A stretch of 4,369 nucleotides of DNA from a virus (Duplodnaviria; Heunggongvirae; Uroviricota; Caudoviricetes): the IMG/VR virus record IMGVR_UViG_2703719355_000024; one strand, given 5' to 3'. Shown piece after piece: positions 1,059 through 4,369 of this stretch (its first letter is position 1; each line of letters starts with the position of its first letter). Under the pieces are notes generated by a model that was not told where the DNA came from, made no database searches, and saw only the letters and a program-made list of their open reading frames with translations. Made by a program: the position numbers and the translations under genes.

Positions 1059-1502
1059 ATGCTTACTTGTTTTGATGTCGCCGACTACTTCCTGTCGCGG
1101 TGTGACGAGGATAGCGGTGACACAATCTCTAATTTAAAATTACAAAAGCTTGTTTACTATGCTCAGGGTTTTTCATTGGCGTTGCTTGGCGAGCCTCTTT
1201 TTCAGAATAAGATGGAAGCTTGGATGCATGGCCCTGTTGTCCCTGAGCTTTATCGCCGTTATAAACAATATGGTAATGGCGCTATCCCTTCTCCAGAGTC
1301 TTTTGATGCTGAAAAATTCAGCGAAGAACAGTTAGAGCTATTAGAAGAAGTCTGGGATGTTTTTGGGCAATTTTCTGCCTGGAAACTGAGGAACATGACA
1401 CACGAAGAGTCACCATGGAGATCAAACTATATTGAGGGTGTTGGTGGTTCTGAAATTAGCTCTAAGGAGATGGCAGAGTACTTTGCAACTCGGATTAACT
1501 AA
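1059..1502 (+). CDS. Panacea-domain protein (DUF4065 / SocA-like antitoxin domain, GepA-type phage-associated protein); putative antitoxin or sensor component
   Basis: ATG at 1059 with GGAGG 7 nt upstream; the GTG at 1053 given in the ORF track sits on the SD and is less likely. The segment LKLQKLVYYAQGFSLALLGEPLFQNKMEAWMHGPVVPELYRRYKQYG matches the DUF4065/Panacea core pattern as I recall it. Stop TAA at 1500-1502. Confidence 0.75.
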   Translation: MLTCFDVADYFLSRCDEDSGDTISNLKLQKLVYYAQGFSLALLGEPLFQNKMEAWMHGPVVPELYRRYKQYGNGAIPSPESFDAEKFSEEQLELLEEVWDVFGQFSAWKLRNMTHEESPWRSNYIEGVGGSEISSKEMAEYFATRIN

Positions 1503-1506
1503 CGAG

Positions 1507-1926
1507 ATGGCAAGAAAATCTAAAAGGATTATCCCCCCTGCTGAATCTACAGGTAAGTTAAAGTTAGGGCCGCAGTCAGGGGGGAATTCAGATCAAAAGA
1601 AACCGAAATTTTCATTCTGTTACATCCAAAGCTCTCACTGCATAACGAAATGCCAAAAAGATGAGAAAGCTGGCTTAGCTGATAAATTATACAGATTAAG
1701 TCAACTAACATGGGCAGAGATTAAGCAGCAAGGTAGGCATAAGCTTGGATTTGAGAAGATTGCAAGGGGTGCCATTAAAGCAGGTATCCCCAGTCATATA
1801 ACGGAAGACGTAGATCATTTCTTGGCTTTTAGATTTGATGATTTGAAAGCCATGGTTGGTTATCGTCTTGGATCGACATTTTTTGTTATATGGCTTGATA
1901 GAGAGTTCAACCTATACAAGCACTAA
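1507..1926 (+). CDS. hypothetical 139-aa protein, candidate toxin/effector partner of the Panacea-domain protein
   Basis: ATG at 1507 lies 4 nt after the upstream stop, in the same orientation, with no strong SD of its own, suggesting translational coupling. The ORF-track start at 1432 is a TTG inside the upstream gene. Basic low-complexity N-terminus (MARKSKRIIPPAESTGKLKLGPQSGGNSDQKKPK), a Cys/His cluster (FSFCYIQSSHCITKC), and a beta-rich C-terminus. No family recognised. An intrinsic terminator follows immediately. Confidence 0.7.
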   Translation: MARKSKRIIPPAESTGKLKLGPQSGGNSDQKKPKFSFCYIQSSHCITKCQKDEKAGLADKLYRLSQLTWAEIKQQGRHKLGFEKIARGAIKAGIPSHITEDVDHFLAFRFDDLKAMVGYRLGSTFFVIWLDREFNLYKH

Positions 1927-1953
1927 TAAAACCCACCGTCAGGTGGGTTTTTT
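1927..1953. terminator. bidirectional rho-independent terminator shared by the convergent Panacea operon and the repressor gene
   Basis: AAAA (1927-1930), stem ACCCACC (1931-1937), loop GTCA (1938-1941), stem GGTGGGT (1942-1948), then a T-run from 1949. The flanking A-tract and T-tract allow function in both directions. The repressor stop codon (complement of 1939-1941) lies in the loop. Confidence 0.8.
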
Positions 1954-2748
1954 GTTGTCTCTGCTATCGAGAAGGAAGTTCAATTTTTCCTCTATTTCTT
2001 TAAGCTTGAGATAAAGTAATTCTTTCTCGGTTCTGGCATTTTCAGCTATAAAATCCTCTGCTTCATCCAACGTATTTTCGCTATCTCTTATCGAGTGCAG
2101 CGGGGTTTTTAACAAATCAATTTGTGCATGAATAGCTACAGCAATGATTTCCATATCATCACTGATTTCCAACATCGGGTACGCTGGATTAAGTGGTTTT
2201 AAGTAAAAATGCCCCTGATCTCTTATTAGTTGCTTGAAGGTGGTTTCAAATCCATTGCAACACAGCACGAAGTCTCCTGGTTTGGCCTGAATATCCGGAT
2301 CAAAGCAGACAGTGTAGCCATCCGGGAAGCTAATTCCAGAAGATGATGTCATTGAATGCCCTGTAACCACTAACGCAAATGCATTATTCCCGGCACATAA
2401 CGGGGCAGGGATAAAGTCTATAGGAGTAATGTCGCTTGGAAATTTTCCTCCTTTAGGATAGGAATTTGATAGGTGCGAGAATACGGGGATCTCTCTGACT
2501 GTTACCGTTCTCTGTATTGAGCTAACATCAGGCCCCTCACCAACACCGATAGCTAACCATTCTGTTGTTGTCCCTAAAGTAGCAGCCAGATTTCGTAACA
2601 CAGCGTCCCTTGGCTTGGAATCTCCTGCTTCATAGGCTGCTATTTGCCTTCTTACGATGCCAACCTTATCAGCTAACTGACCTTGAGTCAGCCCCATGGC
2701 AGCGCGAGCGATAGATATACGCTTAGGAAATGAATCGTCAAATTTCAT
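1939..2748 (-). CDS. lambda CI / P22 C2-type repressor: N-terminal HTH (XRE/Cro-C1 type) plus C-terminal S24 (LexA-like) peptidase domain, with an additional ~55-residue charged helical C-terminal extension
   Basis: Start taken as ATG at 2748-2746 with SD AAGGA 6 nt upstream; the ORF-track start at 2805 has no SD and would overlap the candidate divergent promoter. HTH: ISIARAAMGLTQGQLADKVGIVRRQIAAYEAG. S24 domain: GHSM (Ser nucleophile) and TFKQLIRDQGHFYLKPLNPAYPMLE, very close to lambda CI [26 protein letters not shown] and P22 C2 [24 protein letters not shown] as recalled from memory. Confidence 0.85.
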   Translation of the reverse strand: MKFDDSFPKRISIARAAMGLTQGQLADKVGIVRRQIAAYEAGDSKPRDAVLRNLAATLGTTTEWLAIGVGEGPDVSSIQRTVTVREIPVFSHLSNSYPKGGKFPSDITPIDFIPAPLCAGNNAFALVVTGHSMTSSSGISFPDGYTVCFDPDIQAKPGDFVLCCNGFETTFKQLIRDQGHFYLKPLNPAYPMLEISDDMEIIAVAIHAQIDLLKTPLHSIRDSENTLDEAEDFIAENARTEKELLYLKLKEIEEKLNFLLDSRDNKKPT

Positions 2749-2770
2749 ATGTGATCCTTTAAAGTTCACA

Positions 2771-2799
2771 TTGACACATTCAAATTCATGGCAAATAAT
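2771..2799 (+). promoter_or_regulatory. candidate sigma70 promoter for the arc-like/antirepressor operon (Pant analogue)
   Basis: TTGACA at 2771-2776, 17-bp spacer, AATAAT at 2794-2799, about 50 bp upstream of the arc-like start. Flanked by repeated TGTGA/TCACA half-sites that could be operators. Confidence 0.45.
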
Positions 2800-2848
2800 T
2801 GGCATGAGTTTGTGATGATGTGTGATTCAAAAATACATGAGGTGAATA

Positions 2849-3022
2849 ATGGAACAGAAGAAAAAAGATATCAAGCCTATCTCCTACCGCCCAAGTGCTG
2901 AAGTGCGTGAGTTTTTGGAAGGTAACGCAGCTAAAAGCTACCGCTCAATTCAGGGAATGCTTGATTTCTTTATGGCAAGAGTGATGGAGATGGAGAGGAA
3001 AGGTGAAATTGTCATCCATTAA
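2849..3022 (+). CDS. arc: Arc-like ribbon-helix-helix transcriptional repressor (57 aa)
   Basis: Not in the supplied ORF track (below its length cutoff). ATG at 2849 with GAGG at 2839-2842; stop TAA at 3020-3022. Protein [57 protein letters not shown] aligns by eye with P22 Arc as recalled: a basic beta-strand (FNLRWPREV vs ISYRPSAEV), the RS motif, and RVME in helix B. Sits directly upstream of the antirepressor-like gene, as in P22 immI. Confidence 0.7.
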
Positions 3023-3093
3023 AAATGTTGAAGCCCCAACTGCTGCAACAGTCAGGGCTTCGGTATCAACAAAACTTACGAGGTATTATTGAT

Positions 3094-4023
3094 ATGTCAA
3101 GCTTAGCAAAGTCAACTGTAAATTGCACTAACAGCATCACCATTTCAGACGTCAAGATTCATATGGATTCAGAGGGGCGTTACTCGCTTAATGACCTGCA
3201 CAAGGCATCAGGTAAAGAGCGTCGTCATGAGCCTGCTGCGTGGCTGCGACTAGAACAAACCAATGAGTTAGTTCAAGAAATTCTAAATACACAGATGTGT
3301 GTATTTAAAAATGGCGATAACTTTAATTCTTCAGAATCGCAGATTAAGAAGCCAATGGACTCTAAGAAGGGTCGCTACGGAGGCACCTACGTGTGCAAGG
3401 AGCTTGTTTACTCCTACGCCATGTGGATTAGCGCAGCCTTTGCGCTGAAGGTTATCCGTGCATATGACGCAATGGTTACTACCACACAAGAGAGGAAGGC
3501 TATTGGCGGTAAAACTTCAGTAGCTGAACGCACACCGCTACGCGATGCAGTAAACATGCTGGTAGGAAAGAAAGGGCTTCGCTATGACGATGCATACAAT
3601 ATGGTTCATCAGCGTTTTGGTATTGACAGCATTGATGAACTTTCAATTGAACAAATCCCGCTGGCCGTAGAGTACATCCACAGGGTAGTGCTTGAAGGTG
3701 AGTTCATCGGCAAACAAGAGAAGAAAACCAACGAGCTTTCTGCAAAAGAAGCAAACAGCCTTGTATGGTTATGGGATTATGCCAACCGCTCACAGGCATT
3801 ATTCCGCGAATTGTATCCGGCGCTAAAACAAATTCAATCGAACTATTCCTGCAGATGCTACGACTACGGTCATGAGTTCTCGTATGTTATTGGAATGGCG
3901 AGAGACGTTTTAATAAACCACACACGAGATGTTGATATCAATGAGCCAGACGGACCAACGAATCTTTCCGCATGGATGAGACTTAAGAATAAAGAATTAC
4001 CTCCTTCAGTACATAACTACTGA
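3094..4023 (+). CDS. KilA-N domain protein, putative antirepressor (functional analogue of P22 Ant)
   Basis: ATG at 3094 with GAGG at 3080-3083. The in-frame ATG at 3025, 2 nt after the arc-like stop, has no SD but cannot be excluded. N-terminal region has KilA-N hallmarks ([53 protein letters not shown]). Followed by a strong intrinsic terminator. Position between the arc-like gene and the tailspike matches P22 ant. Confidence 0.75.
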
Positions 4024-4041
4024 CAGATAACCAACGCAACG

Positions 4042-4065
4042 ACCCAGCTTCGGCTGGGTTTTTTT
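4042..4065 (+). terminator. rho-independent terminator downstream of the antirepressor-like gene
   Basis: Stem ACCCAGC (4042-4048), loop TTCG (4049-4052), stem GCTGGGT (4053-4059), then a T-run to 4065. Confidence 0.8.
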
Positions 4066-4123
4066 ATGCCCAAAATTCACCGTAGCCATGCTGCGGCGAT
4101 TCCTTGTATCTGGAGCAAATTAA

Positions 4124-4369
4124 ATGACAGACATTACAGCCAATGTTGTGGTAAGCATGCCTTCGCAACTCTTCACTATGGCGCGTTCTTTTAAAGCCGT
4201 AGCCAATGGCAAAATTTATATCGGAAAAATTGACACTGACCCGGTAAATCCTGAAAACCAGATTCAGGTTTATGTAGAGAACGAAGACGGTTCTCACGTT
4301 CCTGTTTCGCAACCAATCATCATTAACGCTGCTCGTTATGGTGAGTTTGATGACTACCCGCTGAAGTGA
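4124..4369 (+). CDS. tailspike protein N-terminal head-binding region (P22 gp9-like); only 81 codons before an in-frame stop at the window edge, so possibly truncated, remnant, or a module junction
   Basis: ATG at 4124 with GGAG at 4112-4115. The first ~70 residues ([70 protein letters not shown]) match the P22 tailspike N-terminus as I recall it. The sequence then diverges ([11 protein letters not shown]) and ends at TGA 4367-4369. Confidence 0.8.

Follow-up and report, generated by a model that had tools for sequence, protein, structure and literature searches.

The 4,369-nt stretch of viral DNA analysed here (IMG/VR record IMGVR_UViG_2703719355_000024; below, the window is this whole stretch, and all positions follow its numbering) carries at 1939–4023 a module that was read, with a probability of about 0.55, as an immI-type antirepressor cassette in which the P22 block (mnt, operators and arc) has been replaced by a CI-type repressor with helix-turn-helix (HTH) and S24 domains, its own operators and a distant ribbon-helix-helix (RHH) protein. 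The immI region of P22 is a textbook second-immunity circuit, and to our knowledge only its Mnt/Arc version has been studied. Literature searches, with most subscription journals outside their reach, found no description of a CI/S24-type immI regulator; this regulator block and the portable four-part cassette to which it belongs are apparently new.

The window matched the genome of Escherichia coli strain Z1323CEC0010 (chicken, Korea) at 2065937–2070305 with 100% identity, and two sister isolates were also identical. Window proteins were scanned with Pfam and compared with the RefSeq annotation. The repressor gene (269 aa; 1939–2748, − strand) is read leftward and is separated by a 100-bp intergenic control region (2749–2848) from a divergent 57-aa open reading frame (ORF) in the Arc position (2849–3022, + strand). 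The gene for the antisense RNA sar (3026–3092, − strand) and an Ant-type gene (309 aa; 3094–4023, + strand; RefSeq 'P22AR C-terminal domain-containing protein') follow. Behind them lie an intrinsic terminator (4041–4067, + strand; 4041–4060 in the terminator scan), placed as the terminator annotated in P22, and the tailspike gene. The module thus occupies the slot between gene 16 and the tailspike gene 9 homologue, which is the P22 immI or ant moron slot; the ant moron concept and its mosaicism were described by Villafane et al. 2008 (PMC2629481). An earlier, sequence-only reading of this DNA had proposed the same gene order and orientation and likened it to the P22 immI layout. Every part of that order was recovered, and the layout proved to be a genuine homologue of immI, with sar present, the C-terminal half of P22 Ant retained and the gene 16–gene 9 slot shared.

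At the level of sequence, sar is the strongest single argument for this relationship: because the sar gene is present, the module is homologous, not merely analogous, to immI. Rfam family RF00262 matched at 3092–3026 (−) with 62.3 bits, above the gathering score of 43 (E 1.3e-11), and a covariance model built here, which was trained on nine sar and sar-like sequences, gave the window sar 92.9 bits. The RNA gene fills exactly the gap between the stop codon of the 57-aa ORF and the ant start codon, as in annotated P22, and ends 2 nt before the ATG. At its 5' end, a hairpin is complementary to the ribosome-binding site of ant; its 3' hairpin (3061–3030) is a terminator. According to the alignment and the annotated P22 promoter Psar, the putative extended −10 of Psar was TGCTAAGCT, the reverse complement of 3100–3108, located within ant codons 3–5 and placed so that transcription would start at about 3092. 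This antisense extended −10 (TGCTAnAnT) over codons 3–5 of the gene following sar (the cargo gene) was conserved in related cassettes even among unrelated cargo proteins. Cargo proteins with unrelated N-domains were also seen to share an N-terminal M-x-S-[ILV]-A, apparently because the antisense Psar −10 is embedded in those codons.

Domain analysis showed that the Ant-type protein was a hybrid. In its N-terminal part, the P22_AR_N domain was absent and a KilA-N domain (PF04383) was found instead at about nt 3142–3474 (E 1.6e-22; 79.8 bits, cut-off 23.8); the N-terminus was 34% identical to P1/P7 KilA. In its C-terminal part, P22_AR_C (PF10548) was detected at nt 3718–3936 (E 7.5e-30), residues 140–309 shared 85.3% identity with the C-terminal 170 residues of P22 Ant in tblastn, and the DNA at 3652–4092 was 91% identical to that of P22. 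The junction of the N-domain swap was placed at nt 3511, so that the P22-homologous half covers nt 3511–4020. The earlier statement that this protein carries a KilA-N domain rather than resembling P22 Ant therefore held for the N-terminal domain and failed for the C-terminal 55%, which is 85% identical to P22 Ant. The KilA-N/P22_AR_C hybrid itself is not new, being annotated as ant in Salmonella phage vB_SemP_Emek (Emek), whose Ant was 88% identical to that of the window over the full length (tblastn). Among PHROG families, Ant matched phrog_2812 and phrog_245. An antirepressor activity of the window Ant is suggested by these similarities.

The leftward gene does not encode an Mnt of the Arc/Mnt RHH family. 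Pfam analysis revealed HTH_3 (aa 7–67, E 1.9e-11) and Peptidase_S24 (E 1.5e-17), with an S24 core at aa 86–209; an N-terminal DNA-binding domain joined to a C-terminal S24 domain is the arrangement of LexA and CI repressors, and the RefSeq name of the product is 'LexA family protein'. The identification of a CI-type HTH-S24 protein at the Mnt position was thus correct, and Mnt itself stands there in Emek, phiv205-1, 611R6, P22 and a sister E. coli strain. The likely start codon was ATG 2748, in agreement with RefSeq and with the N-termini of homologues; an upstream start at ATG 2805 was rejected, as it had no Shine-Dalgarno sequence.

Lambda CI was the best solved relative of the repressor (E 2.5e-20), with 40% identity in the C-terminal domain. 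The AlphaFold (AF2) model, made from 55 homologues with a predicted local distance difference test score (pLDDT) of 88.7, consisted of five N-terminal helices, the S24 beta core and one long extra C-terminal helix (aa 224–264). Its top Foldseek match was lambda CI 3bdn (E 8.5e-14), and its C-terminal domain fitted 1f39 with a template modelling (TM) score of 0.91 and a deviation of 1.7 Å. Ser132 (nt 2353–2355) and Lys172 (nt 2233–2235) aligned with S149 and K192 of lambda CI. Fold, domain order and Ser-Lys dyad are therefore shared with lambda CI, P22 C2 and 434 CI; however, those repressors are located at immC, are paired with cro and have an Ala-Gly bond, none of which applies to the window repressor, and they lack its extra 40-residue C-terminal helix. 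Whereas lambda-type CI controls lytic promoters, the window repressor is predicted to control an antirepressor operon. Its family comprised HTH-S24 proteins of 250–300 aa, most of them with the C-terminal helix (consensus RLxxIExxL), and was found in Yersinia, Pantoea, Lonsdalea, Klebsiella, Cronobacter, Proteus, Providencia, Xenorhabdus, Morganella and Shewanella.

The residues aligned to the scissile A111-G112 of lambda CI were N95-S96 in the window repressor (nt 2461–2466). Self-cleavage of S24 proteins has an Ala-Gly (or Cys-Gly) bond among its documented determinants (PMC8565304), and because N95-S96 replaces Ala-Gly, SOS cleavage of the window repressor is doubtful. In the family alignment, the catalytic Ser was kept in 79 of 83 sequences and the Lys in 77 of 83, while Ala-Gly was kept in 12 of 83, a count that includes lambda and four distant matches and leaves seven within the family proper. 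The canonical scissile bond was thus gone in about 85% of a family whose dyad is nearly invariant. The P1 Ala was kept in about 58% of the family, and P1' was highly variable (mostly I, R, K, A, M, F, H, E or S). The homologue in Escherichia phage JEP4 also lacked the catalytic Ser (GEAM). A second Ala-Gly of the window repressor (aa 119–120) was rejected as a cleavage site, since it lies at the start of a core strand, is aligned to 'KKASDSAF' of lambda and is not conserved. The different induction logic suggested by the sequence-only reading was therefore left unsupported: with the scissile bond replaced, the simplest reading may be that of a non-cleavable CI-type protein doing the maintenance job of Mnt. 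The absence of a LexA box from the promoter region, noted in the same reading, was confirmed by search; over the whole window, one site with one mismatch was found, inside the toxin gene and at chance level.

These residues also bear on an SOS-triggered alternative, in which the S24 repressor would self-cleave on RecA filaments at a non-canonical bond, and DNA damage would release Ant, which would then induce its own and co-resident prophages. The repressor would in that case be a private LexA-like protein, and the logic would be that of Gifsy or 186 Tum. The conserved S24 fold with its Ser132-Lys172 dyad, the P1 Ala in more than half of the family and the minority of seven that still has Ala-Gly agree with such a module, and LexA-controlled antirepressors acting in trans are an established theme. 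In Gifsy phages, antirepressors are reportedly under LexA control and act in trans (Lemire et al. 2011, PMC3121763). As in Gifsy, an S24-family repressor lies upstream of an antirepressor, in the window a predicted one, that could hit the repressors of other prophages; however, Gifsy relies on host LexA and a LexA box, while the window has a private phage-borne CI-type repressor with neither a LexA box nor the scissile bond. The replaced bond, its rarity and the very variable P1' in the family, the documented role of Ala-Gly or Cys-Gly in self-cleavage, the missing Ser of the JEP4 homologue and the unconserved core-strand position of the other Ala-Gly all argue against SOS triggering, which was considered improbable. 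Because the dyad is nearly invariant without the bond, another reading is kept alive, although it is more speculative still: the family could be a protease-repressor inactivated by a non-RecA signal, through non-canonical or trans cleavage or through control by the C-terminal helix, and the cassette could then be a portable non-SOS trigger that cross-induces co-resident CI/C2-type prophages in podovirus, siphovirus and myovirus backgrounds alike.

In the control region (2749–2848), a rightward promoter TTGACA-17-AATAAT (−35 at 2771–2776, −10 at 2794–2799) matched the consensus at 11 of 12 positions and was kept in every aligned version (5 divergent variants, 25 cassettes). Four of the nine TGTGA copies of the window fall in 2750–2826. 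As candidate operator half-sites TGTGA[AT], they are located at 2750–2755 (+), 2765–2770 (−), 2811–2816 (+) and 2821–2826 (+). The first two form the dyad ATGTGATCCTTTAAAGTTCACAT (2749–2771), which abuts the −35 and covers the ribosome-binding site and start codon of the repressor itself; the other two are at positions +5 to +20 relative to the start of the rightward transcript. A 22-bp palindrome, TCATGGCAAATAATTGGCATGA (2786–2807), spans the −10 and +1. The dyad was rejected as a CRP site, for which its TGTGA/TCACA half-sites are spaced by 11 instead of 6.

Comparison of 20 non-redundant cassettes showed that TGTGA was enriched 8-fold in the intergenic region. The recognition helix VxRQIAAYE was invariant in the family except for residue 33; at least one TGTGA was present in 10 of 10 cassettes with Arg33 (mean 2.5) and in 2 of 10 without it, counts that are not independent because the sequences are related. 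As TGTGA presence covaries with Arg33, the comparison supports TGTGA[AT] as the putative half-site of the Arg33 subgroup; among computational checks, it comes closest to testing whether the CI-like protein binds 2749–2848. It may be guessed that the C-terminal helix joins two repressor dimers on either side of the promoter. A leftward candidate promoter, TTGATA-17-CATTAT (2874–2846), matched at 9 of 12 positions only.

The 57-aa ORF corresponded over its full length to phrog_10182 ('unknown function'; E 2e-34), and it is probably an RHH protein in the Arc position. Members of its family gave weak matches to RHH_5 (7 of 12, best E 0.0021), to ParD_like (8e-4) and, in one member, to Arc (0.011). 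Comparison with an Arc alignment by hhalign gave E 0.0013 and a probability of 18%, covering the strand, helix A and the 'RS' motif at which helix B begins. The AF2 monomer model (pLDDT 69) had a coil at residues 1–16 and helices at 17–27 and 34–50, a topology compatible with RHH. Pfam gave no match at threshold for the ORF, and Foldseek with the monomer model returned nothing useful. PDB sequence searches with the 57-aa protein and Ant gave chance matches only. A search of 50,697 phage records by tblastn with the 57-aa protein gave no match, the copy in JEP4 being too diverged for detection, and NCBIfam held no family for this protein, for Ant or for the toxin candidate described below.

Comparison with Emek delimited the exchanged segment. 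Identity was 99.3% over 682–1953 and 86% over 3021–4332, and between these flanks Emek has three small ORFs, mnt and arc, while the window has the CI-type repressor, the control region and the 57-aa ORF (1954–3020). The block ends at the terminator hairpin 1928–1951 on the left, where the Emek homology stops at 1953, and at the sar terminator on the right. Outside the block, the two share the Panacea/DUF4065 pair (99%), the KilA-N and P22_AR_C Ant and sar. The sister strain Z1323CEC0001, which comes from the same study, has the same remnant adjacent to dacD, with an identical Ant (WP_053897323.1) but Mnt-like and Arc regulators (locus L016, 3323–6645). Because Emek and Z1323CEC0001 hold Mnt/Arc between the same flanks, the exchanged block was taken as 1954–3020, and, judged from these alignments, the regulators swap as a block. 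In lambdoid phages, whole imm regions (cI, operators and cro) are swapped, and the exchange of 1954–3020 can be regarded, by analogy, as the immI counterpart of those swaps. The CI-type block was rare in E. coli, occurring in 7 of 5426 complete genomes at no less than 99% identity, with a diverged version in 8 more.

Compared with P22 immI (mnt, Pmnt/Pant, arc, sar and ant), the module therefore has the same slot, a repressor gene read leftward, away from a strong promoter, a small gene at the head of the rightward operon, sar over the ant ribosome-binding site, the conserved C-terminal half of Ant, and a terminator followed by the tailspike gene. The differences lie in the proteins and operators: P22 has the RHH tetramer Mnt, Arc and an Ant with P22_AR_N, whereas the window has an HTH and S24 protein with a C-terminal helix, a remotely Arc-like 57-aa protein and KilA-N, and its operators differ from those of P22 immI. 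Among the isolated phages in the collection, JEP4 (MT740315) alone had a version of the cassette. Between its gene 16 and tailspike gene, the gene of a CI-like repressor (43.5% identical) diverges from a 57-aa ORF, which is followed by Rha and KilA. Its repressor has neither the C-terminal helix nor the catalytic Ser, its cargo is Rha and KilA, and mnt is also present.

The four parts found in the window, namely the repressor, a 57-aa family ORF about 100 bp away and divergent from it, a sar-like RNA and a Bro/KilA/Ant-type gene, were looked for in 16 further species-representative genomes and in IMG/VR, where 105 contigs encoded a relative and 80 of them were examined. The 57-aa family ORF was divergent from the repressor in all 16 genome loci (hmmsearch E ≤1e-10), and a small ORF was paired with the repressor in 80 of 80 viral contigs; the spacing was 97–105 bp throughout (16/16 and 80/80). 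A sar-like RNA after the stop of the small ORF, antisense to the cargo gene, was found in 16 of 16 loci on which the covariance model had not been trained (E 2e-10 to 0.05) and in 74 of the 80 contigs. Rfam did not detect the sar-like element of diverged cassettes at its gathering threshold, and only the covariance model built here recovered it. In the cassette sar alignment, 91% of cells paired and 16 of 20 pairs varied on both sides, the alignment being model-fitted, which favours structure; slid controls reached at most 53% paired and 8 pairs.

The first downstream gene encoded Bro-N (9), P22_AR_N (3) or KilA-N (3) in 15 of the 16 genome loci, and the second often ANT, Rha or ORF6N. With cargo of these three types in nearly all of the genome loci, there is nothing unusual about a KilA-N protein at the Ant position. 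The combination of a CI-type repressor with a KilA-N protein, which the sequence-only reading had taken for a mosaic, is real; it is not a one-off but one instance of a widespread cassette, whose repressor and small ORF were paired in all 96 further loci.

The genomic backgrounds of these loci were diverse. In the P22-like prophages CU37RT-2 and A10 and in phage JEP4, the cassette stood in tandem with a Mnt/Arc/Ant set or with mnt alone. In strain EC16, it lay in a myovirus-like prophage between tape-measure-like and baseplate genes, and in Klebsiella, Proteus and Shewanella it lay in siphovirus-type prophages inside the tail gene cluster. Judged from these loci, the cassette is a conserved portable unit of about 2 kb in the late operons of unrelated tailed prophages of Enterobacterales and Shewanella. 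In a lambda-like prophage of strain EC12, a bare three-gene cassette (repressor, 57-aa ORF and P22-type Ant; locus L017, 6008–8093) lay exactly between the lambda-type tail genes L and K, with spacers of 16–55 bp on either side. Tandem immI modules, one CI-type and one canonical (Mnt/Arc/sar/Ant), each with its own sar or sar-like RNA, were observed in CU37RT-2 (locus L007, 4064–9085) and in the IMG/VR loci L060, L086, L099 and L102.

Such varied cargo could also mean that the cassette does not serve an antirepressor. Genes of the KilA-N, Bro-N, Rha and ORF6N kinds might act as DNA-binding regulators or in host killing, exclusion or abortive infection, and repressor, RHH protein and sar would then hold a toxic or defensive effector tightly in check. 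Such triple negative control would suit a harmful product, and the neighbours (the Panacea toxin-antitoxin genes and the ORF at the place of sieA) are of accessory or defence type. In addition, the P22_AR_C-bearing 'Ant' of phi24B, which shares the last 104 residues of P22 Ant at 82%, showed no antirepressor effect (PMC3064807). However, the window protein shares 170 residues with P22 Ant, the one experimentally established antirepressor, the regulatory context including sar is homologous, and P22 immI places the same three control layers on a bona fide antirepressor (PMC2629481). A function other than that of an antirepressor was thus regarded as unlikely.

For the antirepressor cassette, we infer the following circuit. 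The 269-aa repressor would be made constitutively and would bind, either dimeric or assembled into a higher oligomer by way of its 40-residue C-terminal helix, to the TGTGA half-sites flanking the rightward promoter, so that the operon would be silent in a cell bearing the cassette, which is the job of Mnt in P22. The promoter would fire, for example, on entering a cell without this repressor, and the 57-aa RHH protein would stop it after a burst, like Arc. The same rightward transcript would yield Ant, while sar, initiated inside the first ant codons, would pair with the ant ribosome-binding site and limit translation of Ant. With its KilA-N N-domain and the C-terminal half of P22 Ant, Ant would inactivate CI/C2-type immunity repressors in trans. 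Because there is no Ala-Gly bond, the repressor would by default not be an SOS sensor, and the swap would alter the immI 'immunity type', that is, which superinfecting ant operons stay silent, and not the induction signal.

Several observations weigh against this circuit. The RHH assignment of the 57-aa protein is weak, as the Pfam, hhalign and Foldseek results indicate. The palindrome across the −10 has no assigned role, half of the cassettes are without TGTGA, which limits the operator assignment to the Arg33 subgroup, and the promoter scan did not convincingly identify a leftward promoter for the repressor. The near-invariance of Ser132 and Lys172 would be puzzling in a protein whose protease function does not matter, and the phi24B result counts here as well. 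Finally, the cassette of the source genome is a remnant, and the body of a P22-like phage is absent there.

The whole window is an orphan ant moron remnant of the P22-like type. In Z1323CEC0010, the 4.4-kb piece is flanked by the tail-fibre/NleG end of a lambda-like prophage and by chromosomal dacD; because the locus is a remnant, any activity of the cassette would be in trans. It might even be a dead relic, left behind by a degraded P22-like prophage and inactive in regulation today, as the truncated gene 16 and tailspike pseudogenes, the missing phage body and the position of the fragment, wedged between the NleG gene and dacD, would allow. Against this, the reading frames of both toxin-antitoxin genes, the repressor gene and ant are intact, as is the 57-aa ORF; the promoter is near consensus, and sar scores above the gathering threshold. 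The remnant also persists in sister strains with an exchanged, intact regulator block, and resident lambdoid prophages could be targets of Ant acting in trans. A dead relic was accordingly judged very unlikely.

If the antirepressor reading is true, the cassette would define heteroimmune 'immI types' that determine which prophages cross-induce or exclude each other in polylysogens, and this would be relevant to strains with lambda-like prophages carrying virulence cargo, such as the NleG-bearing prophage beside the locus. Strains Z1323CEC0010 and Z1323CEC0001 would be a natural near-isogenic pair differing only in the regulator block and suited to the study of immI specificity. The repressors would represent an S24 family in which dyad and scissile bond are uncoupled.

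To the left of the cassette, a Panacea-domain protein is encoded at 1059–1502 (+ strand; PF13274, E 1.9e-24), and a 139-aa partner (phrog_8366) at 1507–1926 (+ strand) begins 4 nt after this Panacea/SocA-type antitoxin. The segment 1059–1926 is a candidate for a PanA-toxin pair; the putative toxin, which is the partner, belongs to no Pfam or NCBIfam family and is unclassified. A hairpin terminator found by terminator scan (1928–1951) is common to this operon and the convergent repressor gene. The common terminator and the adjacency of the two units in the window and in strain EC16 are what speaks for control of the Panacea operon by the CI-type protein, instead of or besides ant, which the sequence-only reading had considered possible. 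Co-occurrence contradicted this in both directions. In Emek and Z1323CEC0001, the pair, which moves independently of the cassette, is 99% identical and accompanied by Mnt/Arc, the CI-type gene being absent. Conversely, the EC12, CU37RT-2, A10, JEP4, Klebsiella, Proteus and Shewanella loci, and more than 100 loci altogether, have the CI-type gene but not the pair, and the gene is always divergent from the 57-aa ORF. Moreover, the two units are convergent, not divergent, and directly upstream of the Panacea ORF no TGTGA cluster comparable to that at 2750–2826 was found; the density of the TGTGA copies at 874, 917 and 1101 is that of the background. That the repressor controls the Panacea operon is thus extremely improbable.

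The remaining features lie at the edges of the window. The C-terminal fragment of ejection gene 16 (1–354, + strand) is a RefSeq pseudogene. It is followed by a 109-aa ORF in the slot of P22 sieA (355–684, − strand; phrog_5962, of unknown function), and its boundary at 682 coincides with a recombination junction that Emek, phiv205-1, JEP4, CU37RT-2 and A10 have in common with the window. At the right end of the ant moron, the tailspike pseudogene (4124–4339, + strand) is a head-binding stub (Pfam Head_binding, E 8.7e-40). Sub-threshold Rfam matches to STnc420 and sroH at 1921–1976 (−) covered the hairpin 1928–1951 only and most likely reflect terminator-only similarity.

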